Shown: positions 14,622-56,158, counted from the stretch's first letter. The stretch is 64,000 nt of DNA from a phage (GCA_012401045.1 GCA_012401045.1_4704.1); one strand, 5' to 3'. Program-made: numbers and translations. Notes: generated from the sequence alone by a model not told the origin.

Positions 14622-14633
14622 ACATATTAAGTT
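14622..14633 (-). promoter_or_regulatory. AACTTAATATGT promoter-like motif (minus-strand copy)
   Basis: The reverse complement of ACATATTAAGTT is identical to 10623..10634. TATG lies 41 nt upstream of ATG 14582. Confidence 0.5.
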
Positions 14634-14861: not shown

Positions 14862-14890
14862 CGTAGTAGTATCTGTTTATCTCTTTTATG

Positions 14891-15244
14891 CTAACAGCCT
14901 ATTTCTGCATGAACCTTTAACGATTCGAATACATCTTGCTTCTTTATCATCGTCTTGTATAAACGTGATTGAGCAATGATCTTTATCCATTGTTGTGGAT
15001 CGCGTAAATTCACATTTTCAAAACGGGGTGGGGTATTATCTCCGTCGAGTCGGATATACCCTAAGAGCAATCCTTCATGGTCTCCTCGACGGATTTCGAT
15101 ATGCGGTTTGAGGAAGACATGATTGTCTGGTGGATACCAGCTTACGGTGTAGTAATGGTTTCCTGAAACAACGAATTCGTGAACGGCTTTTGTCTCATCG
15201 TCAATGACCGCATTTACGCTGGGAATCATTAATTTTTGAAGCAT
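14891..15244 (-). CDS. Hypothetical protein (117 aa)
   Basis: ORF with GGAGG 10 nt upstream. An alternative start at 15229 gives a TAATG overlap. Confidence 0.65.
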   Translation of the reverse strand: MLQKLMIPSVNAVIDDETKAVHEFVVSGNHYYTVSWYPPDNHVFLKPHIEIRRGDHEGLLLGYIRLDGDNTPPRFENVNLRDPQQWIKIIAQSRLYKTMIKKQDVFESLKVHAEIGC

Positions 15245-31805: not shown

Positions 31806-32615
31806 TTACCAATGATTAAAGCTGCCCGCTTTAACGACATCACAACGTAGGTGGTTACGTAACTGATCCAGGAAGACAACCGGACTGTCGCCAGACAACA
31901 TAGCCAGCGCGTGTTGGCCACCGGAACGAACAACAAGCTCATCGACCATTGGTGCTGTAATCGGGAGATCATACGCATCCATGATTGCTTTGGCTTCCTG
32001 TTCTACGTCTTTCTGGAACCCTTCCATCGTCGGAGAGTCATATTTGGTTGCAAACTCGATCCCAGGCAAGTTAACGTAATCGTAAGTCATGACACGGGTC
32101 ATAACACGACGGCGCTCACGTTGCCAGATCTGAGGATCGGTTAACGCGCGAACCGAAAAACACACGTTCACCAACGGCGTTTCAAAATCTTTACGTAATG
32201 GATCACCGTACGGCCCGCAAGGAATAACATCCCCCATCACCATCACGACAGGACGACCACGACGATCGCGTCCCGCTTCTTCTAACCAAATCTTAGAAAA
32301 GCAATGGCTTACCTTCGTTTCTTCGATTCGTAACGCTCGCTGCAAAAAGCTGGTTGCATCCTGACCGATCTCTGGTTTAGGGTGACCGTATTCACCTTTC
32401 AACGAACGATTGCGTGCGTTTGTTTGCAGTAAGCTGTTTTCCAGAAACAGCGGTTTCGAACGCTCAAGTTCGTAATATTCTTCGGTATTGTTAAAACAGT
32501 TAAATCCGCCGATAACACAGGTGTAGGCACCGTCAGCATTAGGACGGATAATACCTTTCTTATTCACACCAAGATAACTGGTGCAAACAAGATTACTAAT
32601 TGGTGGTTGCATCAT
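31806..32615 (-). CDS. Prohead (head-maturation) serine protease, T4 gp21 / phiKZ gp175 type
   Basis: LKGEYGHPKP aligns with T4 gp21 LGELNHPPR (catalytic His). CGPYGDPL aligns with HGPGDKL. CFSVRAL aligns with VSSRGL (catalytic Ser). 269 aa. Confidence 0.75.
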   Translation of the reverse strand: MMQPPISNLVCTSYLGVNKKGIIRPNADGAYTCVIGGFNCFNNTEEYYELERSKPLFLENSLLQTNARNRSLKGEYGHPKPEIGQDATSFLQRALRIEETKVSHCFSKIWLEEAGRDRRGRPVVMVMGDVIPCGPYGDPLRKDFETPLVNVCFSVRALTDPQIWQRERRRVMTRVMTYDYVNLPGIEFATKYDSPTMEGFQKDVEQEAKAIMDAYDLPITAPMVDELVVRSGGQHALAMLSGDSPVVFLDQLRNHLRCDVVKAGSFNHW

Positions 32616-33426: not shown

Positions 33427-34137
33427 TCACCCCCTCAGAATCGCTTCTGTTTCGCTGATCGTATCCGCAGGATAAACCAAACTACTATCGATTGCGTTAT
33501 TCACGTAACCACCCATTAAGTTGGTGATGGTGTTTGTACCACTATCGATAATGTTTCGTAATCCGATATCGATGGCTTTTAACGTGCTGCGTTCCTCATC
33601 CGAAAGCAAACGCCATGCTCGACGACGATCGTTGGGGTCACGTGTGGTGATAGAAGCCAGAACAGAATAGATGCTGCTATCCGCATTCAGTTTAACGCCT
33701 GCCAATTTCGCTGACGTGTAGAGCAGCTGATATTTTTCTTTCTCAGTGTACCACCATGGCACTTTACCGAGCGTATAGATCTCGTTATACATCAGCCATG
33801 GGAAAGAGTTTCGCATCACGACATCGGTTGACACCAACACCGTGTCACCGGGAAGAAACACAAACTCATAAAACGGCTGGCCATCCATGGTAATTTCACG
33901 GATGTCAGACGGGTCGATATGGAGCTGGGTCAATGCGTGGCTGACACCATACTGACCATCGGGAAGAATAATCGGGCAGCACGCACAAACCCGGTTCTCA
34001 CTCCCGATGATAGATAAACCCAATCCCTCGTAACGGACGGGTGTCAGAATCGAACACCCGCCACGAGTAACAACAGATTTATCTTCTTGTATGTCCCAGT
34101 CCGCAAGCACCGCAGCACCGTTGCGGACAAGCGCCAT
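33427..34137 (-). CDS. Hypothetical protein (236 aa)
   Basis: Clean ORF, tightly packed. Confidence 0.7.
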   Translation of the reverse strand: MALVRNGAAVLADWDIQEDKSVVTRGGCSILTPVRYEGLGLSIIGSENRVCACCPIILPDGQYGVSHALTQLHIDPSDIREITMDGQPFYEFVFLPGDTVLVSTDVVMRNSFPWLMYNEIYTLGKVPWWYTEKEKYQLLYTSAKLAGVKLNADSSIYSVLASITTRDPNDRRRAWRLLSDEERSTLKAIDIGLRNIIDSGTNTITNLMGGYVNNAIDSSLVYPADTISETEAILRG

Positions 34138-35661
34138 TTACACCTCGCTAATCTGGATAACGTAAAGCTGCTGGGCCACGTAATCGGTGGTCAGATGCAT
34201 CGTTGCGATGGTCGCTGCTTCGAACACCGTGAGTTCAGGACGTTCACGCATAATCAAATCGATCTCATCGATGAGACGGTTAACGCCTTGAGCGTCTTCG
34301 TGATGCATGGTTTTCACGTACAGCGTACGGAAATACTGCTGGAAGTTAGCTACGTCGGTATCGGTAAGGGTAGCAACTTCACCACGTACGATTTCCATAA
34401 CCTTCTTACGGGTATCTTCATCGAGGTCCACTGTAATCAGGTCAGCAAATACGCCCTGCAATGCCAACGCGTATGCACGTAAGCGGTTTGCGGCCTGCTG
34501 ACTGGCTTTCATGTTGATGTAGTTACGGTAATGCTGCATGAAGCCTGCACCGTTAGCCAACAGCTCATCTTTACTGATGAGTTCACGTTCTAACAGGACA
34601 GCTGCGGTCAGTGCTTCCGGCGAACCACCTTCTTGCAGATAACCCATGTAGACATCTGCGTTAACGAAAATCGTCATCGTTGACGCATCTTCAGCACGTT
34701 GAATCTGAGAAGCCGACGGTGCAGAAAGAATCAGCTCACCACGCTCCATACGCAGGATACGATCACGACCGACGCGGGCCATCCCGTTGATCGCCGCAGC
34801 GCGAGCTTGTTGCATTTTAGCGCGGTAGTTTTCAAGCATCATGTCGTTGCCGTCCTGGATATCTTCCAGCAGGTTAACGGCCCACATATAGCAGAGGAAT
34901 GCAGGAGTTGCCGCAGCGCGGGAACCGTGGAATGCAACGTTATCGCTATCCGGATATGTAATCAGATAAGCGGTGTTGTTCGAAGAAGGAGCGGAACCAC
35001 GGAAGAAATAGTTGTAGATGTCTTCCAGTGCCTGATCGCTCATCCCTTCCGTTGCTTGCTGTACAAAACGATCCAGGTTTTCATTACCGGTATACAGCAA
35101 CGTACGCAGCTTATCGCCGGTGATAAACGCAAGCTTTTCGGTTGGGGTGAAATCGTTATTAATCGAAATCAAGCCATTGAGATCGTAATCGCTAACTAAG
35201 GCCTGGTATTCTTCGGAGTTATAAAACTCAGGGTAGTAACTCAGACTTACTGTCGGGATCAGTTTCGGTGCCAGGATGATCGAATCGATGCGTTTTTCCA
35301 GTTCCGGGTACAGTGCACGGCATTTCGGCAGGATGGTATTACGCGCCAACTCTTTGGCATACACCACTTTTTCCACCACGTCTTGAACTGCGGTCTGTAA
35401 AACTTCATCGTGGATATAAACCTCGCGTTCGCTGGCAGGTGCTACAGCGCCATCTTCGGTTTCATCAAGTGTTTCAGCAACAACCATACGTTCAGCACTA
35501 AGCTGCACCAACGCATCTGCGTCTTCCGGTGGCTGGTTCCAATGCATGGTTTCACAAACCGCGGCTAACGGCGTGCCCGGAATGGCTGCGACGATTTGAT
35601 TACGTTTGATAAACCCTTCGACAATGGGCTCAACAGCATAGACGGTTTTATTGGTGATCAT
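34138..35661 (-). CDS. Abundant hypothetical protein, probably virion/head-associated (context and codon bias)
   Basis: 507 aa with strong codon bias, lying between the protease and the RNAP genes. Confidence 0.7.
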   Translation of the reverse strand: MITNKTVYAVEPIVEGFIKRNQIVAAIPGTPLAAVCETMHWNQPPEDADALVQLSAERMVVAETLDETEDGAVAPASEREVYIHDEVLQTAVQDVVEKVVYAKELARNTILPKCRALYPELEKRIDSIILAPKLIPTVSLSYYPEFYNSEEYQALVSDYDLNGLISINNDFTPTEKLAFITGDKLRTLLYTGNENLDRFVQQATEGMSDQALEDIYNYFFRGSAPSSNNTAYLITYPDSDNVAFHGSRAAATPAFLCYMWAVNLLEDIQDGNDMMLENYRAKMQQARAAAINGMARVGRDRILRMERGELILSAPSASQIQRAEDASTMTIFVNADVYMGYLQEGGSPEALTAAVLLERELISKDELLANGAGFMQHYRNYINMKASQQAANRLRAYALALQGVFADLITVDLDEDTRKKVMEIVRGEVATLTDTDVANFQQYFRTLYVKTMHHEDAQGVNRLIDEIDLIMRERPELTVFEAATIATMHLTTDYVAQQLYVIQISEV

Positions 35662-35894
35662 TACTGCGCTCCCTCCAACGCATTACTACCTACGGGTTCT
35701 TTGGTTTCCAGACGGCTGTTTAAGCGCGCAGCAACCGCATCTTCCAATCCCAACGGCATAACCTTTTTGTTCACGTCAGGATCGGCGGCATCATTACCAA
35801 CGGTTTGACGTACGACCTCAGCAACCAACGTTACCGCGTTCGTCAGCGCAACAAAGCTCGCTGCCCGAGCCGTGTTAAGTTGTTCTTGGTTCAT
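35661..35894 (-). CDS. Hypothetical small protein (77 aa)
   Basis: TAATG overlap with the downstream gene. Ala-rich. Confidence 0.6.
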   Translation of the reverse strand: MNQEQLNTARAASFVALTNAVTLVAEVVRQTVGNDAADPDVNKKVMPLGLEDAVAARLNSRLETKEPVGSNALEGAQ

Positions 35895-35995: not shown

Positions 35996-38900
35996 TTATT
36001 TAGCGTCGTTAAAGTAAATATCAACAGCTCGTTCCGTTGCGTAGAGGAGACCAAGATTCACAGTCCCAACCACTTCCGGTGAACCGATGATACGGTTAGC
36101 GATACTGGTGCCACTGAAGATAGCATCAAGGGTGTGCCCGTCTTCGGTTTTGTTCACACCATGACCCACGGAAGAGACAACGGATTTCGCTTGAGCTGCG
36201 AAGGTACCTTTATCGCCCATCCCCGCACCAAGGTCGTAACGCATGAAAATACGGATTGCGATCTGGTTCTCGCCTAACGGATTACCGTCTATTCTCACGT
36301 TACTGTTATTGATACGCCCCGTAGCTGCTTCGTTGAGTTTCAGTTCCTTAACGCGTTTAGCTCGCGCTTTATCTGCATCACCGACGAGCGCCGCCATGGT
36401 TTCACTCATATCCTCAATCTGAGCGCGGTACAACACATCGATCTGTACAACTTCACCATGAACGTCAGCACGTGGGTTATACTGACTCATACGACGTAAT
36501 GCTTCAACGGCTTCCTGACTCTCATCACTCAGATCGGTCGCAATCGGTTCTTCCAGTGTTGCAAGGATCGTTCGTGGTTCAACATGATCGCCGATTTTCA
36601 CGAGACCACGAATGTTGAGATGGGCGTCAACGATGAGCGTACGGCTCTTAATCGATGGTGTTACGAGACGATCGGCAAGATTGTCGAAGATATACGAACT
36701 GTCCTCGTGAGTCTCTGGAATATCCAGAATACCGACAAGAGACAGAACACCTGCGCGCCAAACAACCTGACCTGGGTTCCACCAATCGCGTTTAAAATAA
36801 AGACGATGGAAGACCACCACATCCTGATCCTTAACGCGATCCCCGACTTTATAATCGGTAATAAGATCGTGAGGATAATACTTACCTGGTCCTTTCCCGA
36901 TTATCGTGCCGAGTTGGAAAACCTCTTCTCCTAACTCTGGATCGTCGTATTGTATCGTAAGCGCAGTTTTGGTGACCTTCTTAACAACACCATCGCCTTG
37001 GGCAGCTGCTGCGAAGAGCTTACCAACACGATGCGCGATAACGGTCTCACCGCCGGTGCGCCACGGTTGTACATCGTAACCCTCAGCGGCAATCATGCGG
37101 TTGTGTTGGATCCCGACGAAGACCAGACGTTTTCCATCATCACGGTCTACGGCTGGAACAGCTAACGCCGACGTACTCATTACCGATGAGATACCGTCTG
37201 TCTTTTCATCGAATGGTCGTGTTTCACCATACACCGACACGATATTAGCATTAGGTGCAAGGTAAGCTGAGATACCCACATCCCCACTATCTTTCGTACC
37301 CTCTGACACAATACCAACATCGGACTTGTCGTATTCACGATCACGTGCGCGTCGAAGCGATGTCTTTGAACGACCCCCGATACCGGTCATCGTTGCTTCT
37401 TCACCCTGCTTGATATCCAGCATCGGGTTGGTTTCATCGATCACGATGGACGCGCTGTCGTCGAGAATTTGGTTCCAGACGCTTACCGGACTGATTGAGA
37501 TTTTCTGGCGATTTCCTTGACTGCTGTTCTCATTCTGACGAATAGCGCCAACCAGATCCTTATACACCAATTCAGCGAACTTATCGTACGTTTTAAAACG
37601 TTGGTAGTTCACATCGTTGGTGTTAGGTGCCCAGTCATCCAGAAGCAGTTCAACAGCACGCAGTAACAACATGGCGAAATCGGTAGGTTCTCCCATGTTC
37701 TGTAGCAACGTACGGCTTACCGGATCAACGAAAAGACGCTCCATGAGTTCAAGTTCGCGTAAATGGCGAACCTTAAGTCCAGCACCATCAACAACGTTAA
37801 AATAGATATCTCGATTGTCGAAAGCACCGCGAGCGTAACCGATGTAGTTACGGTATTCGTTAAACCCACCCAGCAACAACGTCGTCATGCGATCGTCTTT
37901 ACTGAAGATCAAACTTTCGTCATCAAAGCTCACCGCGAATTCATCGGGTGCTAATCCCATACGAGAACCGCGAGGTACCGTACGATAGTTCGCTTTAAGA
38001 TGTTCTAATAACGGGGTAAGTCCACCCAGATAACTTAGAACGACACCAACCGGAATACGTACACCCATGAATTCAAGATCGGCGGCTTCGATCGGCATCT
38101 TAGCCGCATTGATACCGAAGAAATCAGGGAACGTCCCTACAGGTGTTGGTGTTTGTCCTGACTGACAGATATAGAGCTGATTGCGTTTATCGATTGCTAA
38201 GAATTCACCCAGCGTGTTACGCGCAAACGTCAGGAGCCCTTCGGCTAACTGTTCGTTGAACCGATCTTCCCCGATGAACTCCGGCAATGTCTTTGTATCG
38301 AGACGTATATCCCAATCAGCAAATTGGATTTGGGTATAGTTGCGTGCAAGCACAGCGAAGTAATACGGGACTTTGACGGCCGGATCAAAGACGTTACCAC
38401 GTTTTAACGTGGTTAAGGGTGAGGACTTATCGTAATACATCGCTGTAAGTTGGCGTGTTAACCAACGACCGGCGTTATTAACGACACGCTCTGAACGTTT
38501 AACAAACACCTTACCGTAGGCGGTACTCAACGCAACTTCGGATGATGATACCTTTCTAATAGGTTTATCAACACGTTGTTTACGCATCCGGTATTTGATG
38601 CCGTTAACGACATAAATGCCGTCCTTACGAACCTTCGGCAACATCACCGGGAACGTGGTTGGGACACCGCCTACAGGGGCCAGTTTAATCGTGATAACTT
38701 GATAATCCCCCATCACGTCAACAACATCTTCAACTTTATATCCCGTGACAGGGTAACCTGCCTGTTGTACGGCAACAACAGCGGCTGCGATGTCCTTTTG
38801 CATCACGTGTTCAACGTAATGTTTATCCCACACCGCAAGCGTCGATTTACATAGGCTCTTATCGACGATAACATCCGCTTCCGGCATAACCTTTGCTGGC

Positions 38901-40342
38901 GCTAATTTCGCGGCTTTTGGTTTAACTTCAACATACTCAGCAAGTGTTAATCCAGAACCGTCGGGTGCTTCGATTTCATGGATGGCGTCGGCATTACGCA
39001 TCGCTGCTTTATATTGGACACCGCTTAACTGACCCGCATCCGCCAGATCGCTCGCGCGCACCAACACCGCATCCGATAACGACTGAATATATTCACCGTG
39101 TGTTTTTGGTAACGTTGCCGCGTCAAAGACATCAACCTTTTCTTCTTCGGTATCGTCGGTAACGACCTCGAAGAGATCGTCGGTAATGTCCTGATCTTCA
39201 TCGGGTTGGAAATCCGGCTGTACTTCTACCCCGGGTACTTCACGGACATCTTCGAACGAGCGTTCTACAATGGCGTTCCACGCATCAGCGTCATCGTCTT
39301 CATCCGACCCACCAACCAACTCCGCTTCTAACTCATCGGGATCAAGAACAGTGGCCAGATCCTCACCGTTAGGAAGCACGACGTCGCGATCATCGTACTC
39401 TGCATCCGGGCTGTCCGCAAGAATATCTCGCTCTTGACGAAGAACCTGTTCCTCTTCTTGTTTCTGTTCTTCTTCATTCGCGCTCTGCGACCATAGACGT
39501 GTTACCGCCATCATCCAACGACGCTGGAAGGTTTCGAGTGTCGTTTTATCGAGTTCTTCCCCTTCCTTTACAAGCCCGGTACGCCATTCTTCCAACAGGC
39601 CGAGATTCAGCGTAAAGAAGTACACGCCGTCTGTAAATACAACGTTAAGCTTATCCAGCGTGGCTCTGTCTAACGAAGCCATCGTGCTGTTCTCACGATC
39701 GGTTCCCAGCCAGCGGAAGAAGTCAAAGAACGACAGCTCCTCCGGCGTAGCGAAATTCATGAGGTTGTTACGGGTCGGTGCCTGTTGCGTGGTACGCATC
39801 AACGAAATCTTCGGCAATGTTGACGGTATACGGAACAACAGAAAGTGTTGGCGATCGCTTTGCTGCGCGATTTCGTTGGCTTTCGACCAAATTGTTTTAC
39901 GTACGTTGAACCATTCATCATACCAACGGGTGAGCGTTGGACGATAGATGTACATGTGGTTAAGATGTGCGTAGTTAGCAACGATCTGAGCGTTGATGTT
40001 TTTCTCCACCGTACTTAGATCGGTAACCAAACGAAAACGACGATGTGACGCACGATAATCCAATTTCGCTCGTGGGAGCTGGAATCGCTGATCACGTCGA
40101 GGTGCACCCTGTTTGGTTGCGAGATCATCAGCAAACGAAATCCATAGTTGAGCACTTTCTTTACTCAACATGTATTCGTTTTCTGGAGGACCTATCAATG
40201 AAGGATCCGTTGCGGTGTAATGATAGACAGCATAACGTGGCAGCTGCAATAGCTGCACTAAACGTAATCTCGGTGACAATAGCTCTTGGTAGCGTCTGAC
40301 GCCAAACTGTCGGTAGTAATCAAGGTATTTAAGTTTTGCCAT
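35996..40342 (-). CDS. Multisubunit RNAP beta-subunit fragment (large N-terminal/major part), probably of the virion RNAP
   Basis: 1448 aa. MTGIGGRS...SEGTKDSGDVGISAYLAPNANI resembles beta ALGPGGL...ETPEGPNIGLI. GIQHNRMIAA resembles NMQRQA. MGDKGTFAAQAKSVVSSV...EDGHTLDAIF resembles GDKxAGRHGNKGVxS...EDGTPVDIVLNP (GDKG at 36217..36206). The protein ends before a GEMEVWA-type region. Confidence 0.8.
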   Translation of the reverse strand: MAKLKYLDYYRQFGVRRYQELLSPRLRLVQLLQLPRYAVYHYTATDPSLIGPPENEYMLSKESAQLWISFADDLATKQGAPRRDQRFQLPRAKLDYRASHRRFRLVTDLSTVEKNINAQIVANYAHLNHMYIYRPTLTRWYDEWFNVRKTIWSKANEIAQQSDRQHFLLFRIPSTLPKISLMRTTQQAPTRNNLMNFATPEELSFFDFFRWLGTDRENSTMASLDRATLDKLNVVFTDGVYFFTLNLGLLEEWRTGLVKEGEELDKTTLETFQRRWMMAVTRLWSQSANEEEQKQEEEQVLRQERDILADSPDAEYDDRDVVLPNGEDLATVLDPDELEAELVGGSDEDDDADAWNAIVERSFEDVREVPGVEVQPDFQPDEDQDITDDLFEVVTDDTEEEKVDVFDAATLPKTHGEYIQSLSDAVLVRASDLADAGQLSGVQYKAAMRNADAIHEIEAPDGSGLTLAEYVEVKPKAAKLAPAKVMPEADVIVDKSLCKSTLAVWDKHYVEHVMQKDIAAAVVAVQQAGYPVTGYKVEDVVDVMGDYQVITIKLAPVGGVPTTFPVMLPKVRKDGIYVVNGIKYRMRKQRVDKPIRKVSSSEVALSTAYGKVFVKRSERVVNNAGRWLTRQLTAMYYDKSSPLTTLKRGNVFDPAVKVPYYFAVLARNYTQIQFADWDIRLDTKTLPEFIGEDRFNEQLAEGLLTFARNTLGEFLAIDKRNQLYICQSGQTPTPVGTFPDFFGINAAKMPIEAADLEFMGVRIPVGVVLSYLGGLTPLLEHLKANYRTVPRGSRMGLAPDEFAVSFDDESLIFSKDDRMTTLLLGGFNEYRNYIGYARGAFDNRDIYFNVVDGAGLKVRHLRELELMERLFVDPVSRTLLQNMGEPTDFAMLLLRAVELLLDDWAPNTNDVNYQRFKTYDKFAELVYKDLVGAIRQNENSSQGNRQKISISPVSVWNQILDDSASIVIDETNPMLDIKQGEEATMTGIGGRSKTSLRRARDREYDKSDVGIVSEGTKDSGDVGISAYLAPNANIVSVYGETRPFDEKTDGISSVMSTSALAVPAVDRDDGKRLVFVGIQHNRMIAAEGYDVQPWRTGGETVIAHRVGKLFAAAAQGDGVVKKVTKTALTIQYDDPELGEEVFQLGTIIGKGPGKYYPHDLITDYKVGDRVKDQDVVVFHRLYFKRDWWNPGQVVWRAGVLSLVGILDIPETHEDSSYIFDNLADRLVTPSIKSRTLIVDAHLNIRGLVKIGDHVEPRTILATLEEPIATDLSDESQEAVEALRRMSQYNPRADVHGEVVQIDVLYRAQIEDMSETMAALVGDADKARAKRVKELKLNEAATGRINNSNVRIDGNPLGENQIAIRIFMRYDLGAGMGDKGTFAAQAKSVVSSVGHGVNKTEDGHTLDAIFSGTSIANRIIGSPEVVGTVNLGLLYATERAVDIYFNDAK

Positions 40343-40345
40343 GGG

Positions 40346-41992
40346 TTAGGCTCCACGAGGTCCCGTTAAGTTGCGTAATAGGAACGCAACCGTATCGTAA
40401 CCAATATCGATGTTGAATTTATTTTTACCACTTACCCAGAAAGCTCGCTTCTTGTGCGAGTTGGTAATTTCGTCAATAGCTTCCATGGAATAAAGAACGT
40501 TAACCGAGACCGTATCACCATCAAAGTCCCCACCAAGTCCGGCGAGGTATGGCGCAGGGACAATAGTCGTTTCTACGAACGAAGCATTAGGTAACCAGTC
40601 GGGGTATTCCCATGCGATAAATCGTTCATCCGTTATTGGTTCCCAGTTACTATCCAGTTCGGTTTTCGGTTTTGCGGCGACGGTTGTACGTGCGTAACAG
40701 GTTAACGGGATAACGGATTGCATACCTGATACCGGATAACGTGTTACCATCGCAGCCAGGTTATTCCAGTACTTATATCCGGCAATATAGATAAGCTCGG
40801 TGTAAGTAATGGGGTGAACATCCGCGCCAGGTTTATTCAACATCTCCGGGGGTAATTCACTCATGCCACGGAATAACCGAAACGAATCGTTGTTCACATA
40901 GACGAGGCAAAGATATCGTCCATTGACCATGATAGGCTCGTTACGCACGCCAGGATCGCTTAAGGTGTTCAGTAAACGTTCTATTCCGTCCCATGTTGTA
41001 AAGTCATCGATGGTGTCTGGATCAAGCGTGACGCGCTCACGTTCCATCGTTTCGGTATCAGTAAGTTCAACTTCTGTAACATCACGGACAAATATTTCCT
41101 GCAAAATACCGGTACGTAACGCATGTTGCGTTACTGGGAGAGCGGCTTTACTCATCTGGTATAACCCTAACTGAACCGCGGTACAGGAAGGCTGGTTAGG
41201 CGACCCTAATACCTCCGTTGTGGGGTTAATTGCCGAAATAACGTTACGGGTTGAGTTCCAAACGCGACGTGAACCAAACTTACCTTGGAAGATCCCTTTC
41301 TTACCCTGGAACATATCCAACAGTAAAGCGTAGATATCGTTGAATGTTCTCTGTAAGCTCCAGCGCTGGCCGTCGTAAACGGGATCGGAATAATCTTTTA
41401 ATCCATCAGGGACGGTGTTAGAAATTGCAAGGAAACGACGATACAACTCCGTGATTTCTTGCTCGCTTTCATACCCACCTTCTTTTACTTCTATTTCACG
41501 TAAGCCTGCAGGCAATACCAGTAAGTGACGGGTCATCGCTTTGAACATGTTCTCTTCGACAACTTTAATTCGTAGCTCTCGTTGAGCTGAACCCGTTGAA
41601 ACGAACTTGATATCCGCGACGTGTTGTGCAAAGAACCCGTATCCTGTTTGTCCTGTTAATGCATCAGACGCAACGAAGTCGCGTTGTTCGGGATCCCACC
41701 GAGCGTACGCCTTCCCCGACATGATATCGCCATAGAGGTGTTTTAATCGAATGAGACGGTCGTAAATGACAGGATGCAGGATTTCAACCTTGCATTCAAT
41801 CACCGCAAATCGACGGTCTCGATCTTCACTACCCGCACTACCAAAGATGGTGTAAGAATAGAAACCATCATCGTGGAAATTACCGGTGCTTGGGTCACGA
41901 ATGCTCATGCTCGTGATCTTGGGGAGAAAACGTAACTGCTGTTTATCGAGGTGTAAAATACTAATATTAAACGGCTCTCTGACTTTAGCCAT
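40346..41992 (-). CDS. Multisubunit RNAP beta' N-terminal fragment (contains the catalytic DFDGD loop)
   Basis: LAGLGGDFDGDTVSVNVL has DFDGD at 40528..40514, 55 aa before the stop. The start is chosen at MAKVREPF (ATG 41992, with AAGAGGAG upstream) rather than the track start at 42034. Confidence 0.8.
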   Translation of the reverse strand: MAKVREPFNISILHLDKQQLRFLPKITSMSIRDPSTGNFHDDGFYSYTIFGSAGSEDRDRRFAVIECKVEILHPVIYDRLIRLKHLYGDIMSGKAYARWDPEQRDFVASDALTGQTGYGFFAQHVADIKFVSTGSAQRELRIKVVEENMFKAMTRHLLVLPAGLREIEVKEGGYESEQEITELYRRFLAISNTVPDGLKDYSDPVYDGQRWSLQRTFNDIYALLLDMFQGKKGIFQGKFGSRRVWNSTRNVISAINPTTEVLGSPNQPSCTAVQLGLYQMSKAALPVTQHALRTGILQEIFVRDVTEVELTDTETMERERVTLDPDTIDDFTTWDGIERLLNTLSDPGVRNEPIMVNGRYLCLVYVNNDSFRLFRGMSELPPEMLNKPGADVHPITYTELIYIAGYKYWNNLAAMVTRYPVSGMQSVIPLTCYARTTVAAKPKTELDSNWEPITDERFIAWEYPDWLPNASFVETTIVPAPYLAGLGGDFDGDTVSVNVLYSMEAIDEITNSHKKRAFWVSGKNKFNIDIGYDTVAFLLRNLTGPRGA

Positions 41993-42237
41993 GGAGACAC
42001 TCCTCTTTACCACCACCGGCTGCGGCGGTATCATCTGAACACACGAGAGACGTAATGGGTGATGGCGTCACCCATCGCTTCCTTGCTTGAGGCGAGGAAG
42101 TTATTAGGTTACGTACCTGCCTGATTTTATCAGGTGGGCGATGTGTGAAGTTACGCTTCAACATTATCAATGCCGAAGGTAAACTTCGTGCATCACGTTC
42201 CAACGTAACATGGGAACGTATCGAACTGGAGGTATAC

Positions 42238-45200
42238 ATGGTAGATAAAACCCGTGTTGAGGGTGATGATAATTGGGACAACTGGGATGAAGACTTCTCC
42301 CTGGATCTCGATTTTAACGAACCCAAAGACGATCGTAAACCGATAACACGCTTTGCGATAGGAGCGGTTAAAGGTGCTGCTGAGGATCTTACTTCCTACG
42401 AAAGAATGAAGGAGATCGCCAGAAACGCATTGCCTAAGGGCTACAGCGACGGTATGGATCTTATTGATTCCGCCGTCGGATCCACGAAGGAACTATACAA
42501 TGAAGCCGTTCGTGACGTTCTTCCTAAGGTCCAAAGCTCAAAACGGTTAGCCGCACAACTGACCAAGAAATACCGTGCGAGCATGCCCGATTTCTCGAAG
42601 AAAATTCTTGAGCAATGGGAGCGAGAAGCCAAGGAAGAAGACGAACGTAAACAAGCTGAAGAAACCCTTCGTCAACGCATGGCGAGCGCGGGGGACGATG
42701 AGATCGCCCGCAAGGTTGCCGAGGCATTAGGCGAATCAGCAAACCAAAGCGCGGATCAGTTCGCTGAACAGCAAGCGAAAGAGAGTATCCGTGACGATAT
42801 CGCTGACAAACGGTACGCTGTAACCAACAAACAAATGAGTGCGATGCAAGAAGGCGTCGCCAAGATGGTTGGTTTCAACAATGAATTCGCTGCACGCTAC
42901 ATGCGTAAAAGCCTGGAACTGAAATATCGTTCCTTAGCGATTCAACGTGCAAGTTTTGATCAGCATAAAAAGTTAGCCGAAGTCTATATCGGTTTATTAC
43001 AAAACATCCAGAAGAATACGGCTTTACCTGATGCGGCTAAAGCAAAAATGTCGGAAGAATTCCGCCGTAGCGCGTACCAACGTTTCTTTGGTAATGCGTT
43101 AGATGCGATGAGTTCTTTCGAGAACCGTTTCTTTGCCGATGTTAAGAAAAACCTTGCCACCAACGCATTAGGTGCTTTAAAAGGCGTCGTGTCTGGCGCA
43201 AACGATGCGTTATACGGTTTAAACGAAGCACGTGACTCGATATCCATGATGGATGGGATGGGGTCAGATGGCGATATTAAGGAAATGCAAGGAAAGATGT
43301 TGGGTCAGTTCATTGGCTCAACTGTCGCACCATGGATGGCTAATAAAGGCAGGATGGCGTTACGCGATTTAGCAAAACGTCACCCCAATGCTAAATTCGC
43401 TAGCGCGTTAAAAGCCGTGGATCAAGGTGGTGAGGCTGCCGCTTACACAACGCGTAATCTCGGTAAACTGCTCCAGGAAGATATTCGTAAGAACGAATTC
43501 AATCTTAGCGATCCGTTTTACAAGCAATTGTTACGCGGTGCAGGGCGTTGGGCGTTCAACATGGACAGCGGACGTAACTTCCGCGTGATGAACGACACCG
43601 CTGAAACACTGGCAGAGCAAACATCTTTCGACGGTTTAACCTACCGCAGCATCAACGAGGTTATTCCAGGCTTTCTTGCACGCATTCTGAAAAGCAGTGA
43701 AGGCATCCGCACCGGAAACAGCGATCCTGACTACGAGGTCTATGACGGCATCAGCGGGCAATTCGTGTCTCAGCGCACGCGTGAGCAAAGCGTCAACGAC
43801 ACGCTGTTTAACAAACGTTCATTTGGTTATTACGCCAGCCGTTTCAACGAGGTTATCTCGGTCATCGATCCCGATAAGCAATTATCGGAAAAAGCCAGGA
43901 AGGCACTGGCTAAACAGTTGGCACGAGATAGCGACGCGAACATCGCATTCGACCCGGCTCGTTTTACGGATGAAAGCAACTTCGATCGTAGTATCGACCG
44001 TGACGCTATTAAGGAACTTTCCACGTACTTTCGTGACCGTTACGGTATTCGTGACGATATCAACGATAAGGGGGAACGTCATCAGGTCATTGGAAACCGC
44101 GGGCAATATTACACGGAACGTAACCGAGCCGATCTTCGTTACGGTAATCTGAAATCTTTACAACCGGATATCCAGCGTAACCTTAACCTGCTGAAACGTA
44201 CTGGTGACGTCCAATATCTGGAACGGATCGGGATTGTAACGAGAAATAGCGACGGAAGTTACTCGGTTAATCACGATAGGTATTTCTCTGAAATCGATCG
44301 GTACATCGACCGGCCGGAGTACGCTGACCGCGGCGATGTTAATACGCGATTAACCGCTCAGGAAACAAGAGCGCTGGCGCTGGGTTATCGTGACGCAAAA
44401 CCATCAGCTGGTGACGTCCAAAATGTCGGCCTGCCGAACATCGGTCGTAAGGCTGCTGGAACAGTAACCGTTGATGAAAACATCGGCTACGATAAATGGT
44501 GGAACGACACAGGTGTTATCACCACATCGCTTGAAGAACAGAATCGAGCGTGGCAAGAGCTTTATCTCGAGGCGTTGTCCGAAGCATCCGAACAACGTGT
44601 TGAAATGCTTGCGCTGCTGAAAGCCATTTCTGAGAAAGACTGGTCTAATAACGTTTCGCTGGATGGTGAAGATGTACCTGAAGGTACAGCACCCATTTCA
44701 TTTATCGATCGTGCCAAACAAAAACTCGGCGGACGCAACCTGTTTAAAGGCGGCCGCAATCTCCTCTGGAAAGGAATTAAAAATACCGCACGTTTAGGTG
44801 TTAAAGGCGCACGCTGGGGTGCAGAACGCACGTTGGGTAGTTTGGTAAATTCTGGCCGACGCATTATCAATTTCAACCGCTTCGTGTTCGGCGCATTATC
44901 CAAGGTTGATCAGGTTCCGTTTGACATTTACGTTAAAGGGGAATCCCAACCACGCATATTGGTTGCTAAACTTCGTCAGGGGTTATACTTCGATGAAGCG
45001 ACAGGAAAAGCCGTAAAACGGATGAAGGATATCAAAGGCCCACTCGTTGATGCGGATGGAAACATCGTAATCAGCAACGAGGATATCGAGAAAGGGTTGG
45101 TCACTCGCGCTGGTCGTGCCTTTGAGAATTCAGGACTTAAAGCATGGGCACGTGAAGGTCTTAATGGAATAACGACGGCATTAAGTCTCCCACGGATGTT

Positions 45201-48200
45201 AAAACGCGGTGCGGTTGAGATCTACAAACAGCTTGACAAAACACCCGACGTTTACGTCAAGGGAGAATCAACGCCTCGTCTGTTGTCCATGGTGTTAGCA
45301 GCGGGTGGGTATTTCCGTCGCTCGGATGGACAAGTCATCAAAAATCTTGAAGACATCGATGGTGATGTTGTTGATGCACAAGGTAACGTCGTACTTACGC
45401 TTGCCGACATGCAGAAAGGACTTGTCGATAAATACGGTAAAGCGATTCGTCGTTTAAAAGAAAAGCTCATCAACTTCGGTGTAAAAGCTTTTACGTTACC
45501 GTTAACGTTGCTACGTAAGACAAAGGACATCCTTAAAGCCCTTCCAGGTAAAACCGTTAACGGTCTACGGCGGATGGGATTAAATTTCCAATCACCTGAC
45601 GCGTTACTGGTGGGAACAACGTCGAGCATGGTAGATCGCCTCGATGCTATTTACCAGCTTCTTGACCAGCGTATGCCGGGAGGTGATAAGGATTACCGCG
45701 ATTGGAATGGCGATGGTGTTCGAGAAGGATCGTTGGAAGACCTGAAACGTAAGCGTGAAGCCAAGGAAAACGGTAAGGATGACATCGGCAAAGATTCCAA
45801 TAAAGGAGAAGAAAAGGAGAAGAAACGAGGGTTACTCGGAAGCCTTTTCGATATGCTCGGTGATACCGCAATAGGTAAACGTCTCATGGCGAGTCCGCTT
45901 GGAAAAATTCTGGGTGGTCTTGGGGCGGTGTTAAGCGGCGGTGCGTCGTTAACTGGGTTGTTGGGCAAAGGTCTCATTAGAGGAACCGGCGCGCTGGTCA
46001 AGGGAGGACTAAGTGCGGCAGGATGGTTAGGACGTGGTGCGTTAATGGCGGGTGGGGCCGCGTTGAACGCCGTTGGTGGGTTATCGGGATTAGGTGCATT
46101 CCTCATCTCACCTGTTGGGCTTGCTATCGCTGGCGGTGCGTTGGCTGCTTATGCTGGATGGAAGATCTATCAGCATTTCGCCGAGAAGCCTGACCCGATG
46201 CAGAAGCTCCGTCTTATTGCATACGGTGCAAAAGGGGACGATAAAGACTTCAATAAGAAGCTGCTTGCGACAGAAACATACCTCACCGACCATGTGGTTA
46301 TGACCGGGGATACCATCGGATTCGATCCGAAAGCCGACTCGGAAAAGATTCTCGAAATCTGGGAATTGTCTCTGGAAGATTCCGACCGAATGAACGAATG
46401 GAAACGCTGGTATCTGCATCGTTTTATTCCTGTTTTCGCTCGCGCGTACAAACTCTGGAAAGAGCATATGCCGGACGAGAAGAAATACATGGAAATGGAT
46501 AAATATCCGAACGGTGAGAACAAAGTGAAATGGTCGGAAGCGTTTATCTGGCCTTCCGATAGTCCTGATGGTCCGTATTACGTCGAAGCTAACCCGTTGG
46601 GTTCTTCTGGTGCGACGCGTTATATTGCTGGTCAAGACGTCAAAACCTTGATGCTGAAACAACTCGAAGCCATCAAGAAAGAGTACCAGAATCAGATTAA
46701 GCAATACACTCATGATGAGGCTATTGCTGATTGGTCACGGATGTCTGACACACAACGTAAATCCGTTGCGCCTAACGCATTACGTGGTCAGAAAGCGTCA
46801 TTACGTTTTAACGATAAACGTTACAACAGCGCTGGTGCTAAAGGACGACAGAAACTGGATGCAACCGCGGTTATTGAAAGCGTAGACCGCCGTGGTAGGA
46901 AATGGGTTGCCGGTGGATACATCGATGAACTCACCAGTCTTCGTGTTCGTGCGTACGGTATTAAGGTTCCGTTGTTAAGTCAGATAAAAGTGCTGATGGA
47001 ACTTGAAGACGCTGTAGAACCTGGCGTTGTCGCTGAAGGTAAAGGTGTTAAATACGGTGGCGATCTTGTCGCGCTCTACAAGAAATTCGCGACGAAGTTC
47101 GGAAGAGACGTTAACAGCAAGCATGATCAGGATATCTGGTTTGCTTGGATGAACAACCGTTTCCTGCCCGTCTTTTTAACCTATTACCAACAAGTTAGCG
47201 ACATGGGCGGTCAAGGACTTCTGTCCGACGTGGTACAGAACCTGAAAGACAGCCAACGCTGGGAAATCGGTGAAGCACTTGTCGCAACGCAATACCGTGA
47301 TGAGAAAGGTACACTGCAGCCTGTATGGTCCTGGAATAGTTGTGGTTTCTCCGGTACTGAAGCTAACACCACCAGCAGTTCAACAAAGAGCCAACTCGAT
47401 CTGTTAAAAGAATATGCGGATAAAGAGAAGGTTCGTGAGAAGAACGCGGAAGCATCGCAAGAGGATACCGATAAATTATCGAAGATCCAAGAGCTGATGA
47501 TGAAGCAGGCTGGGTACGAGAAGAAAGACGGTGTCTGGCAGAAGAAATCTCGCATTACCGGCGGGATGAGTAACTCCGAAGCGAATTACAACCCCAATAG
47601 GAATAAGGTCGGTGAAAGCAGCTTTACGGCTTCGGCTACTTCCAATGCGGGATTAGGGTCAACCGGCGATCTTACCGGATTGCCTAACATGGGCTTACAG
47701 AAACCTGCAATGGGACCAGGTCCTGAAGCTGGACGTCGTGCGCTTGTTAAATCCGCTGTAAAACGCGGCATTACCGATCCGATGGAAATGGCGATGTTCC
47801 TTGCGAACATCGAACATGAATCGGGGAACTACACTCACGTACGTGAGGGGAACTATAAGACACCAGAGCGTCTTAAACAGGTCTTCCCTTACAAATTCCG
47901 TGATGTGCAGGATGCCGCACAGACGATCAGCATGGGTCCGGAAGTGGTATTCGAACGTGTGTATGGTAATCGTAAAGATCTCGGAAACACACAGAAAGGA
48001 GACGGGGCGAAGTATTTAGGACGTGGCTTCATTCAGGTTACCGGTAAAGCTAACTACGCTCGTCTGTCCAAGACCTTGAATAAGGATCTTGTCAGCGATC
48101 CGACCTACCTGGAAACGCCGGAAGGTGCAGCGGAAGGTAGTGTCGCATGGTGGCTCAACCGAGGTAACGTATTACGCGATCCCGCAAAACGGGGTGACGT

Positions 48201-48903
48201 ACGCCAAGTTCGTTATCTAGTTAACGGTGGCTATAACGGATTACGTGATGTTGAACAACGTTCTGCATATTGGATTCAGGCAGCTAAGAATGGCACCCTG
48301 AAGAAAATGATGGACGAGTTATCAGGGTCAACATCAGACGATCAAGCTGAAGGACCGACCACTGCCGAACAGGTGAAGAACGAAGCAGCACAAGAGGCAA
48401 ACGGAACACCTGCTGTAAGCAACGATCCGCAAGCCCCAGTATCTTCTACCACCCCTGAAGCTAAACCGTCTGCGGCTGCCGGGACGGCCCCAGCACCTGG
48501 GGAAGCATCACCAACGCCTGGAAGTTTCGAAACAGCAAAAGCCGCGGCAGGACAACCGACATCAACTCCAGCACCTAGCGATTTGCCGTCAAACCCAGGC
48601 GCAAATCGAGGGATATCGGTTCCGAATACACCTGCACAGGTTGCGCAGTCTGCGACACAAACGTCGGCTGCAAGTGAGAACTTCTACGGTAGCGCAGGTG
48701 AAATTCTCCGACAGCAGCTGACCACACAGCAGAACATCGAGAAGAACACCGGTAGAACGAATGAACTTATTTCGGAATTAATCCAAGCCGTTAAGGGTTC
48801 TTCTATCGGTAAGGGTTCTGCAAGTCCTTCTCAACAACAGACGATGTCACTACCTAATCGTCCGCAAGGAATCTCTCCAACACGGACAAGGTACGCACAG
48901 TAG
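42238..48903 (+). CDS. Giant tape-measure-like virion protein with a C-terminal muramidase domain (phiKZ gp181-like by context)
   Basis: ~2221 aa from ATG 42238 (GGAGG 5 nt upstream). The track's GTG start at 42145 lacks an SD. Features are coiled-coil-like regions, an internal 68-aa duplication, a Gly-rich hydrophobic segment, a GH19-type domain and a P/A/T/S-rich tail. Confidence 0.8.
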   Translation: MVDKTRVEGDDNWDNWDEDFSLDLDFNEPKDDRKPITRFAIGAVKGAAEDLTSYERMKEIARNALPKGYSDGMDLIDSAVGSTKELYNEAVRDVLPKVQSSKRLAAQLTKKYRASMPDFSKKILEQWEREAKEEDERKQAEETLRQRMASAGDDEIARKVAEALGESANQSADQFAEQQAKESIRDDIADKRYAVTNKQMSAMQEGVAKMVGFNNEFAARYMRKSLELKYRSLAIQRASFDQHKKLAEVYIGLLQNIQKNTALPDAAKAKMSEEFRRSAYQRFFGNALDAMSSFENRFFADVKKNLATNALGALKGVVSGANDALYGLNEARDSISMMDGMGSDGDIKEMQGKMLGQFIGSTVAPWMANKGRMALRDLAKRHPNAKFASALKAVDQGGEAAAYTTRNLGKLLQEDIRKNEFNLSDPFYKQLLRGAGRWAFNMDSGRNFRVMNDTAETLAEQTSFDGLTYRSINEVIPGFLARILKSSEGIRTGNSDPDYEVYDGISGQFVSQRTREQSVNDTLFNKRSFGYYASRFNEVISVIDPDKQLSEKARKALAKQLARDSDANIAFDPARFTDESNFDRSIDRDAIKELSTYFRDRYGIRDDINDKGERHQVIGNRGQYYTERNRADLRYGNLKSLQPDIQRNLNLLKRTGDVQYLERIGIVTRNSDGSYSVNHDRYFSEIDRYIDRPEYADRGDVNTRLTAQETRALALGYRDAKPSAGDVQNVGLPNIGRKAAGTVTVDENIGYDKWWNDTGVITTSLEEQNRAWQELYLEALSEASEQRVEMLALLKAISEKDWSNNVSLDGEDVPEGTAPISFIDRAKQKLGGRNLFKGGRNLLWKGIKNTARLGVKGARWGAERTLGSLVNSGRRIINFNRFVFGALSKVDQVPFDIYVKGESQPRILVAKLRQGLYFDEATGKAVKRMKDIKGPLVDADGNIVISNEDIEKGLVTRAGRAFENSGLKAWAREGLNGITTALSLPRMLKRGAVEIYKQLDKTPDVYVKGESTPRLLSMVLAAGGYFRRSDGQVIKNLEDIDGDVVDAQGNVVLTLADMQKGLVDKYGKAIRRLKEKLINFGVKAFTLPLTLLRKTKDILKALPGKTVNGLRRMGLNFQSPDALLVGTTSSMVDRLDAIYQLLDQRMPGGDKDYRDWNGDGVREGSLEDLKRKREAKENGKDDIGKDSNKGEEKEKKRGLLGSLFDMLGDTAIGKRLMASPLGKILGGLGAVLSGGASLTGLLGKGLIRGTGALVKGGLSAAGWLGRGALMAGGAALNAVGGLSGLGAFLISPVGLAIAGGALAAYAGWKIYQHFAEKPDPMQKLRLIAYGAKGDDKDFNKKLLATETYLTDHVVMTGDTIGFDPKADSEKILEIWELSLEDSDRMNEWKRWYLHRFIPVFARAYKLWKEHMPDEKKYMEMDKYPNGENKVKWSEAFIWPSDSPDGPYYVEANPLGSSGATRYIAGQDVKTLMLKQLEAIKKEYQNQIKQYTHDEAIADWSRMSDTQRKSVAPNALRGQKASLRFNDKRYNSAGAKGRQKLDATAVIESVDRRGRKWVAGGYIDELTSLRVRAYGIKVPLLSQIKVLMELEDAVEPGVVAEGKGVKYGGDLVALYKKFATKFGRDVNSKHDQDIWFAWMNNRFLPVFLTYYQQVSDMGGQGLLSDVVQNLKDSQRWEIGEALVATQYRDEKGTLQPVWSWNSCGFSGTEANTTSSSTKSQLDLLKEYADKEKVREKNAEASQEDTDKLSKIQELMMKQAGYEKKDGVWQKKSRITGGMSNSEANYNPNRNKVGESSFTASATSNAGLGSTGDLTGLPNMGLQKPAMGPGPEAGRRALVKSAVKRGITDPMEMAMFLANIEHESGNYTHVREGNYKTPERLKQVFPYKFRDVQDAAQTISMGPEVVFERVYGNRKDLGNTQKGDGAKYLGRGFIQVTGKANYARLSKTLNKDLVSDPTYLETPEGAAEGSVAWWLNRGNVLRDPAKRGDVRQVRYLVNGGYNGLRDVEQRSAYWIQAAKNGTLKKMMDELSGSTSDDQAEGPTTAEQVKNEAAQEANGTPAVSNDPQAPVSSTTPEAKPSAAAGTAPAPGEASPTPGSFETAKAAAGQPTSTPAPSDLPSNPGANRGISVPNTPAQVAQSATQTSAASENFYGSAGEILRQQLTTQQNIEKNTGRTNELISELIQAVKGSSIGKGSASPSQQQTMSLPNRPQGISPTRTRYAQ
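44923..45450 (+). repeat. Internal protein-level duplication (two 68-aa units, 108 codons apart)
   Basis: DIYVKGESQPRILV...GPLVDADGNIVISNEDIEKGLVTRAGRA (44923..45126) matches DVYVKGESTPRLLS...GDVVDAQGNVVLTLADMQKGLVDKYGKA (45247..45450). Confidence 0.8.
45828..46172 (+). other. Glycine-zipper-like hydrophobic segment of the giant protein
   Basis: GLLGSLFDMLG...GGLGAVLSGGASLTGLLGKGL...GGAALNAVGGLSGLGAFLISPVGLAIAGGALAAYAGW. Confidence 0.6.
47740..48300 (+). other. GH19 (chitinase-like) lysozyme domain of the giant protein
   Basis: MFLANIEHESGNY (EHESG at 47812..47826) ... LGNTQKGDGAKYLGRGFIQVTGKANY ... AWWLN. Confidence 0.7.
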
Positions 48904-55483: not shown

Positions 55484-56158
55484 TTAGCCCTCATCAAGGT
55501 TATTCTGGAGATGCATCGCGGTGAGGATAACGCCAACCGCCGAAACCGATTTTGCCTTGCTGTCTTCAGGGAGCTGCTCCAAGCTTACGGTACCTGTTTC
55601 TAACAGCATGCGGTTCATTGCGTTGAACTTCTTATCGTCACCACCACGAGCCTGCATCAGCTCTCGGTTCACGTTCGGCATCGACCGTCCTAACGTCGCT
55701 TGCATTTCCGGCTGGCTCCAAGTGGAACCTTTACTATCACCCGTCGGCTGATTGGTGAGCTGGTCCTTGGTGTTGTTGTTTTTCGGAATCGAAATTTTAG
55801 CACTCAACGTTTCGGCTTGTCGGCGGTTTGGAATCAGGTACAATCTGGTTGGGCGGTCACGAAGCACCAATTGCCCTGTTTTCTGGTCGGTGAGATAAAT
55901 GCGTTGGAAGAAAGGGAAACCGTATTTCTTACCGACTTCCAACGCACGTTTTATCGTCACCTCGTTTTTGTTCATGTTGGGTACCCAGATGGGTAGAATC
56001 TCTTTCTTATCCCGACATAAACGCATATAGGCATCAAACGTCTCATCATCGATTTCAGCAAAACGTTTTTTGTAAATAGCGTAAGTCGGGCTCGATTCAC
56101 CCACCAGGTCTTTGATATACCCAAGAATGAATTTTTCTGCTGCAGCGCGGTTGGACAT
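55484..56158 (-). CDS. Hypothetical protein (224 aa)
   Basis: Clean ORF; no motif recognised. Confidence 0.7.
   Translation of the reverse strand: MSNRAAAEKFILGYIKDLVGESSPTYAIYKKRFAEIDDETFDAYMRLCRDKKEILPIWVPNMNKNEVTIKRALEVGKKYGFPFFQRIYLTDQKTGQLVLRDRPTRLYLIPNRRQAETLSAKISIPKNNNTKDQLTNQPTGDSKGSTWSQPEMQATLGRSMPNVNRELMQARGGDDKKFNAMNRMLLETGTVSLEQLPEDSKAKSVSAVGVILTAMHLQNNLDEG

Follow-up and report, generated by a model that had tools for sequence, protein, structure and literature searches.

Pieces of a split virion RNA polymerase, one of them spanning an empty intron site, in a close relative of Escherichia phage Goslar

To which enzyme do two neighbouring reading frames belong that lie end to end on the minus strand of a 64,000-nucleotide stretch of phage DNA (here called the window), one resembling part of the beta' subunit of bacterial RNA polymerase (RNAP) and the other part of beta, and where is the rest of that enzyme? 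We regard it as almost certain that they encode beta'N and betaN, two pieces of the split virion RNAP (vRNAP) of a Goslar-like chimallivirus, an enzyme which phiKZ-like, nucleus-forming jumbo phages carry in their heads and inject along with the genome. The feature is real, and it is already known and experimentally proven in Goslar itself (Chimalliviridae, an Escherichia phage), which is 96% identical in DNA sequence across the locus (megablast) and has the same gene order. In this account we establish what the proteins are, how the beta core folds, where the chains break, that they are of the virion type, and where four of the five subunit genes lie; packaging and function would be expected, from the 96% identity, to be the same in the present phage as in Goslar, phiKZ and SPN3US.

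The beta'N reading frame had been listed as 40346..42034(-), giving 562 residues, but the ATG at 41992, which has the Shine-Dalgarno sequence AAGAGGAG upstream and is also the start annotated in Goslar, gives 548 residues (40346..41992, minus strand). An earlier note on this DNA had described a 548-residue beta' fragment ending 55 residues after the catalytic DFDGD loop (40528..40514), and translation confirms this. Only 3 nt separate its stop codon from the start of betaN, a protein of 1448 residues in which all of the beta motifs quoted in that note could be located (TGIGGRS at residue 986, SEGTKDSGDVGISAY at 1013, GIQHNRMIAA at 1077, MGDKG at 1375 and EDGHTLDAIF at 1400). The hairpin beyond the betaN stop codon (Table 1) has an equivalent in Goslar that carries a terminator annotation. 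Matches to sigma-70 promoters were no more frequent than in shuffled sequence, and are in any case irrelevant because the phage uses its own polymerases.

Table 1. Features of the vRNAP locus and its surroundings, in order of position within the window
Feature	Position	Strand	Basis or remarks
Prohead maturation protease, phiKZ gp175 homologue (synteny marker)	31806..32615	(-)	Pfam Peptidase_S80, 1.3e-78; PHROG 3014
vRNAP fifth subunit (beta'C), 236 aa	33427..34137	(-)	Goslar gp210; phiKZ gp176, 99 bits; SPN3US gp244 homologue; PHROG 2926
Two virion-protein genes between beta'C and betaN	34138..35894	(-)	507 aa, 34138..35661 (Goslar gp209); 77 aa, 35661..35894 (gp208)
Intrinsic-terminator-like hairpin, directly 3' of betaN stop codon	35970..35995	(-)	9-bp stem with 7 GC pairs, then T-rich tail
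vRNAP betaN, 1448 aa	35996..40342	(-)	Goslar gp207; phiKZ gp178; SPN3US gp241 homologue; PHROG 3148
betaN RNAP-beta core, residues 420-1448	35996..39085	(-)	Three Thermus beta blocks; AF2 and Foldseek
DD codons of VDRDD, betaN residues 1068-1069; second empty intron hot spot (PhiPA3 gp210-type site)	37136..37141	(-)	Family matches end here
betaN acidic linker, poorly conserved, about residues 290-420	39083..39475	(-)	Sequence; alignments
betaN N-terminal family-specific domain, residues 1-295	39458..40342	(-)	Proposed capsid-targeting or propeptide module
vRNAP beta'N, 548 aa	40346..41992	(-)	Goslar gp205 and its second exon; phiKZ gp180 homologue; PHROG 2986
Codons of catalytic Mg-binding loop DFDGD, beta'N residues 489-493	40514..40528	(-)	Direct translation
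Empty group I intron homing site, codons recoded relative to Goslar	40520..40534	(-)	Insertion point between 40526 and 40525, codons 489|490, D^F
Divergent giant tail protein with lysozyme domain, phiKZ gp181 homologue	42145..48903	(+)	PHROG 3201; endolysin PHROG 181
vRNAP betaC, 224 aa	55484..56158	(-)	PHROG 3233, 223 bits; phiKZ gp149 homologue, 133 bits

A Pfam search of both reading frames returned no RNAP domains; both being too divergent for those domains to be recognized, this is no evidence against their RNAP identity. The PHROG RNAP families are matched over full length, with 1388 bits for betaN (PHROG 3148, residues 4-1443) and 597 bits for beta'N (PHROG 2986, residues 3-543), and homologues are present in about 300 phage genomes (tblastn), at one place per genome, that of the virion gene; on both counts, the reading frames are not chance occurrences. 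BetaN aligns with phiKZ gp178 at 31% identity over residues 3-1435 (BLASTP), or with 774 bits over query residues 4-1443 (phmmer), its N-terminal extension included. In the PDB, beta'N matches the beta'N chain of the non-virion RNAP (nvRNAP) of AR9 (7S00_d/7S01_d, E about 5e-4) and, weakly, plastid and cyanobacterial beta' or gamma chains; it is collinear with E. coli beta' at 242-285 and 455-477, and its DFDGD aligns with NADFDGD at E. coli beta' 458-464. phmmer searches of the PDB with betaN, betaC and beta'C gave nothing meaningful, and for betaN only a family profile succeeded: made from 51 homologues, it found only bacterial and plastid RNAP beta (Thermus, 8.8e-15), with three collinear blocks at Thermus beta 394-464, 530-656 and 822-871. 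Pairwise comparisons with E. coli RpoB and RpoC (phmmer, Smith-Waterman) were likewise collinear, with z-scores of 0.3-6.6 that are not significant by themselves, only the DFDGD block standing clearly above shuffles. When an AF2 model of betaN residues 420-1448 (pLDDT 89.8) was submitted to Foldseek, the best 50 PDB matches were all RNAP beta (E about 1e-27, TMq about 0.5).

Why do the two proteins end where they do? The betaN core stops after the GDK...EDG block (the bacterial HGNKG region, Thermus beta 822-871), and hence, as the earlier note had it, before the GEMEVWA-type region, whose equivalent, SQPEMQATLG, is carried by the separate 224-residue betaC. Such ends fall midway in genes that are single in bacteria, as might be expected if these were decayed or frame-shifted rpoB- and rpoC-like pseudogenes with accidental break points, but we find this scarcely credible: these ends are shared with phiKZ, KTN4, SPN3US and about 300 phage genomes; betaC and beta'C, which complement the fragments, are intact genes; the 77 beta'N codons that differ from Goslar entail just two amino acid changes, a mark of purifying selection; and the start of betaN lies 3 nt past the end of a beta'N whose AR9 counterpart likewise ends about 52 residues after DYDGD.

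The earlier note had concluded that the C-terminal parts of beta and beta' must be encoded elsewhere. This is correct. BetaC lies 15 kb away, within the same window, and is 100% identical to Goslar gp196 (tblastn); pairwise, it is collinear with the C-terminus of E. coli beta, but not significantly so. As to beta', this subunit is split three ways (N, M and C), not two, and beta'C is among the 'four genes' that had been placed between the protease and betaN. These encode proteins of 243, 236, 507 and 77 residues, and the 236-residue protein, which has no match by sequence in the PDB, is beta'C and a vRNAP subunit according to the literature (HHpred E=0.05). Four of the five vRNAP subunit genes are therefore within the 64-kb window, and the gene for beta'M (Goslar gp78, phiKZ gp80) is outside it. 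The products of the two genes separating beta'C from betaN are, in Goslar (gp208 and gp209), present at >200 copies per virion, and are packaged but not injected. On the other side of the polymerase genes, the divergent giant reading frame encodes 2252 residues from a GTG, or the 2221 previously reported from the first ATG, with an endolysin-type domain at residues 1866-2089; in phiKZ, gp181 occupies the same position and is annotated as a 'tail-associated endolysin'. The order (prohead protease ... beta'C, betaN, beta'N, divergent gp181-like gene) is thus as it had been described, and it matches phiKZ gp175-gp181 and Goslar gp212-gp204; the resemblance to the phiKZ block with gp178 and gp180 as vRNAP genes, pointed out in the earlier note, is borne out by this synteny and by bit scores.

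Are these pieces of the virion enzyme, or of an nvRNAP made early and working in the phage nucleus? Both sets of enzymes consist of split beta and beta' homologues, and the only PDB sequence match of beta'N is to a non-virion chain, that of AR9, because no vRNAP structure in the copy of the PDB that was searched matched in sequence. When the comparison with the phiKZ RNAP sets suggested in the earlier note was run, each of the four window proteins matched exactly one phiKZ vRNAP subunit at full length (gp178, 774 bits; gp180 exon 1, 315; gp149, 133; gp176, 99), whereas the six nvRNAP polypeptides (gp55, gp68, gp71, gp73, gp74 and gp123) all gave E>0.1. Moreover, the 597 bits of beta'N with PHROG 2986 contrast with 25 bits for the second beta' family, PHROG 2987, and the Goslar gene that adjoins chimallin (gp247), positioned like phiKZ gp55, falls just outside the window. 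[quoted passage not shown] A non-virion origin is accordingly very improbable.

No part of the enzyme is less well understood than the N-terminal domain of betaN. The claim that several hundred residues here, including an acidic stretch, are without bacterial counterpart resolves into a family-specific domain of 295 residues, with a confidently predicted fold that has no structural relative outside its own family, and a linker at about residues 290-420 that breaks the alignments of many homologues into two stretches and leaves the consensus empty. We suppose that the domain may be a head-targeting module or a propeptide. Its homologue in 201phi2-1 is cleaved off, at TFE-275, whereas that in SPN3US is uncleaved; in the window protein, TLE-270 and ANE-290 are candidate sites for the S80 prohead protease. 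Cluster representatives matching betaN number 1994, many at full length; about 40 of the best 150 family representatives end at betaN residues 1069-1073, next to VDRDD. In a protein homologue search, full-length betaN had 3 matches, and its N-terminal fragment, or an alignment of it, none; the scarcity of full-length matches is probably due to the acidic low-complexity stretch swamping the word index.

Unlike that in the window, the beta'N gene of Goslar contains a group I intron of 2044 nt, which carries an HNH-like ORF (gp206) and follows directly on the codon for the first D of DFDGD; the gp205 annotation (502 residues) is truncated as a result. The phiKZ gene, too, is interrupted at this GAT^TTC, by the gp179 intron, likewise with an HNH-type ORF and absent from the sibling phage KTN4, while the window reading frame runs uninterrupted through D^FDGD; the Rfam model Intron_gpI found the introns of Goslar (67.7 bits) and phiKZ (92.2 bits), but none in the window. 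Since group I introns interrupt relatives' genes (inside DFDGD in Goslar and phiKZ, in betaN in PhiPA3), might the two reading frames be exons belonging to a single gene, or to one with a mobile intron or intein inserted, the break between them being a splicing junction? There is next to no chance of this, as the junction, from stop codon to ATG across just 3 nt, leaves no space for an intron, Rfam finds none anywhere in the window, the two reading frames are homologous to different bacterial subunits, and spliced Goslar beta'N is the same as the window product except at two residues.

Although the intron is missing, its site is marked by a run of five consecutive codons that are synonymously different, GGT GGG GAC TTT GAT in the window against GGC GGT GAT|TTC GAC in Goslar. 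Neither gene contains a longer run of codons that differ (P about 1e-4 for this site). At the nucleotide level the homing site reads GGTGGGGACTTTGATGGT in the window, and the spliced-exon site of Goslar GGCGGTGATTTCGACGGT. Scans for alleles yielded one further intron-less Goslar-like genome (IMG/VR), with the same recoded site, and otherwise Goslar itself; a metagenome scan for beta'N alleles found nothing. Intron-mediated competition has been demonstrated for PhiPA3 gp210, directed against phiKZ gp178, and we tentatively raise the possibility, on balance a doubtful one, that the recoded site is a naturally selected immunity allele against the endonuclease of the Goslar intron, and so a trace of such competition among jumbo phages infecting the same E. 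coli cell. Alternatively, the differences may be a co-conversion tract, dating from the acquisition of the intron by the Goslar lineage.

How does the proposed vRNAP compare with known systems? That of phiKZ (gp178, gp149, gp180, gp80 and gp176) shows full-length collinear homology at 31-37% identity, so that only about one third of residues are identical, and no alpha or omega homologues are believed to be encoded by phiKZ. In SPN3US, which is more distant (beta'N about 34% identical), the five pieces gp241, gp218, gp240, gp42 and gp244 have 1401, 222, 519, 431 and 240 residues, and betaN again has a long N-terminal region (about 400 residues) without a counterpart in cellular beta. The nvRNAPs of phiKZ and AR9 (PDB 7OGP-type, 7S00/7S01) are also split bacterial-type RNAPs, but they have the promoter-specificity subunit gp68, lack the betaN N-terminal domain, are unpackaged and act inside the phage nucleus; judging by gp123 and gp71-73, their beta appears to be split at a different point. 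In cyanobacteria and plastids, too, beta' is naturally split after the catalytic loop (gamma, or rpoC1 and rpoC2), but there the N-terminal piece has about 680 residues rather than 548, the pieces are two rather than three, and the enzyme is cellular, with alpha, omega and sigma.

The vRNAP would then be a bacterial-type multisubunit enzyme with no known alpha or omega homologue, in which two polypeptides, betaN and betaC, make up beta, and three, beta'N, beta'M and beta'C, make up beta'. To the active-centre cleft, betaN would contribute the fork/Rif region, the DD region and the GDK block, while the DFDGD Mg2+ loop would come from beta'N. Its genes would presumably be expressed late in infection, like those for other virion proteins, and the five pieces would form a complex ahead of entry into the prohead. 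BetaN would be needed for entry, and its family-specific N-terminal domain is probably what mediates this. On ejection, the enzyme would accompany the DNA into the early-infection vesicle, where early genes would be transcribed independently of host RNAP. Other workers have demonstrated, in Goslar, phiKZ or SPN3US, that the subunits are packaged, depend on one another, are injected and carry out early transcription: tagged phiKZ gp180 co-immunoprecipitates gp178, gp80 and gp149 and enters virions; amber mutations in betaN, betaC or beta'C of SPN3US deprive the heads of all five subunits, which reach the head only as a complete complex; and Goslar sfGFP-gp196 is packaged, injected and co-localizes with the injected DNA.

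What is remarkable about this enzyme is that a bacterial-type RNAP should be cut into five, assembled, packed into a DNA-filled capsid, squeezed through a tail and reassembled to start infection without host transcription, as is established for phiKZ, 201phi2-1, SPN3US and Goslar. The value of the present window is that it allows the genes to be annotated correctly: names can be given to four of the five for vRNAP, and the true 548-residue beta'N is visible without the intron that shortens the database entries of Goslar (502 residues) and phiKZ (490 residues). An intron-free Goslar-like phage with a recoded site is, in addition, a natural partner for studies of intron-endonuclease competition among the jumbo phages of E. 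coli.

Translation and the ORF listing confirmed what the earlier note had read from the sequence, namely a 548-aa fragment of RNA polymerase (RNAP) beta' (beta'N) beside a 1448-aa fragment of beta (betaN), with the catalytic DFDGD loop at residues 489–493 of the former, 55 residues from its end, and five beta motifs in the latter (at residues 986, 1013, 1077, 1375 and 1400). The beta'N start used here, with AAGAGGAG just upstream of its ATG, is that annotated in Escherichia phage Goslar. Three nucleotides separate the beta'N stop from the betaN ATG, and a hairpin rich in GC, followed by a T-rich tail, lies directly 3' of the betaN stop. The gene order is also as had been described: the protease, four ORFs (243, 236, 507 and 77 aa), betaN, beta'N and a divergent giant ORF.

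Features of the window, with scores of the proteins matched to subunits of the phiKZ virion RNAP
Feature	Position	Strand	Length (aa)	phiKZ match (bits)
Chimallin (nuclear shell) gene, most of it; expected by collinearity with Goslar	1..~1700
PhuZ tubulin gene; expected by collinearity with Goslar	9600..10600
S80 prohead protease	31806..32615
beta'C, fifth subunit	33427..34137	-	236	gp176 (99)
Two ORFs between beta'C and betaN	34138..35894	-	507; 77
betaN	35996..40342	-	1448	gp178 (774)
VDRDD site (betaN residues 1068-1069)	37136..37141	-
beta'N, ORF as listed	40346..42034	-
beta'N, from ATG	40346..41992	-	548	gp180 (315)
DFDGD codons	40528..40514	-
Run of five synonymous codon differences	40520..40534	-
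Giant ORF beyond beta'N, endolysin-type domain			2252 from GTG; 2221 from first ATG
betaC	55484..56158	-	224	gp149 (133)

Along their whole length, both proteins match RNAP families of PHROG. In the PDB, beta'N matches the beta'N chain of phage AR9, with plastid beta' and cyanobacterial gamma as weaker matches; its alignment with E. coli beta' falls at the LPVLPPxLRP block and NADFDGD. BetaN has diverged too far for searches with a single sequence. When all 1.84 billion cluster representatives were scanned, 1994 relatives emerged, and a profile built from 51 of these matched, in the PDB, exclusively the RNAP beta of bacteria and plastids (Thermus, 8.8e-15; E. coli, 7e-6). The matched blocks are collinear and three in number, at the fork/Rif region, the DD region and the GDK/HGNKG block. 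When residues 420–1448 were modelled with AlphaFold (pLDDT 89.8), all of the top 50 PDB matches were RNAP beta chains (E ~1e-27, TMq ~0.5).

The missing parts of beta and beta' had been supposed to lie elsewhere. Separate genes for betaC and beta'C are indeed present, although beta'C proved to be one of the four ORFs next to the protease, and beta' is split in three, beta in two. BetaC is 100% identical to Goslar gp196 and has SQPEMQATLG at the place of the bacterial GEMEVWALE. Beta'M (Goslar gp78) is encoded outside the window. The 236-aa protein has been placed at the beta' C-terminus by a published HHpred match (E=0.05), and gave no confirming sequence match in the PDB. The neighbouring 507-aa and 77-aa ORFs have Goslar gp209 and gp208 as their homologues, abundant head proteins (reportedly >200 copies per virion) that are packaged, not injected.

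BetaN ends about 46 residues past the GDK...EDG block (Thermus beta 822–871), and betaC starts, in a weak alignment, near E. coli beta residue 1125. The non-virion beta'N of AR9 ends about 52 aa past its DYDGD, and from this near-equality of ends the beta'N split point seems to have arisen before the virion and non-virion enzymes diverged.

Is this the virion-packaged enzyme, as had been proposed? When the phiKZ genes of both enzymes were scored against the window proteins, four virion subunits found matches (99–774 bits), whereas the non-virion gp55, gp68, gp71, gp73, gp74 and gp123 gave E>0.1 in every comparison; the synteny of phiKZ gp175–gp181 is also retained. The Goslar gene adjoining chimallin (gp247), positioned like phiKZ gp55, falls just past the window's left edge. 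In phiKZ, the virion enzyme comprises gp178, gp149, gp180, gp80 and gp176, and tagged gp180 enters virions; in Goslar, sfGFP-gp196 is packaged and co-localizes with injected DNA; and amber mutants of SPN3US in betaN, betaC or beta'C lack all five subunits from their heads. Together with the published detection of the Goslar proteins in virions, these observations support the proposal.

By megablast, Goslar matches the whole locus (100% of the query) with 96% identity, its match occupying 8.1 kb against 6.0 kb in the window. Goslar (genus Goslarvirus) is a nucleus-forming chimallivirus, and the chimallin and PhuZ genes expected in the window would mark this phage as another. The Goslar counterparts, gp207 and gp205, are each annotated 'RNA polymerase beta subunit'; between them the annotation places an intron (Intron_gpI) and an ORF of 490 aa resembling phiKZ ORF179. 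Identical protein sequences occur in one Logan assembly and one 237.5-kb IMG/VR genome.

In Goslar, an insertion of 2044 nt (13531..15574 of the Goslar segment analysed) separates the first D codon of DFDGD from the F codon; phiKZ beta'N is split at the identical GAT^TTC. The group I intron includes an HNH-type ORF in both phages; the Rfam model Intron_gpI detects it in both and found nothing in the window, where beta'N is uninterrupted and differs from spliced Goslar beta'N at two residues. Because the intron splits the gene, Goslar gp205 (502 aa; NC_048170.1, 213756..215264) and phiKZ gp180 (490 aa; AF399011.1, 187786..189258) are truncated in the databases, where both stop at the intron; missing from them is the second exon (58–59 codons) with FDGD and the C-terminal tail, and hence most of the catalytic loop.

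Straddling the empty site are five consecutive synonymous codon differences from Goslar, the longest stretch of differing codons in either RNAP gene (chance ~1e-4 at the intron site, 0.024 anywhere in the gene). This is unlike phiKZ and its sibling KTN4, which lacks the intron: their flanks are identical. The one further intron-less genome found carries the same allele as the window. The recoding may represent target-site (homing-site) immunity or a co-conversion tract.

The VDRDD site of betaN, empty in the window, corresponds to the place of intron insertion that PhiPA3 gp210 targets. Of the top 150 betaN family representatives, about 40 end at query residues 1069–1073, and the site appears to be a widespread hot spot for introns. 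In phiKZ, the non-virion beta'N, gp55, is annotated at 420 aa and followed by gp56 (the two at 9923..12205 of the phiKZ segment analysed); with its DFDGD at residues 417–421 in the published structure, the gp55 gene may carry an interruption in, or close to, the catalytic-loop codons affected in the virion gene.

According to a published proposal, the N-terminal region of SPN3US gp241 (~400 aa) directs the enzyme, once assembled, into the prohead. The prohead protease cuts the 201phi2-1 homologue at TFE-275, which fits the boundary of the betaN N-terminal domain found here (residues 1–295); the SPN3US betaN protein undergoes no processing. The function of the domain is one that we infer. The split polymerase is real, correctly interpreted and already known, since the same genes carry annotations in a 96%-identical phage, where they have also been tagged and found in virions. 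Loose ends are confined to the unexplained domain at the N-terminus of betaN and the empty, recoded homing site.
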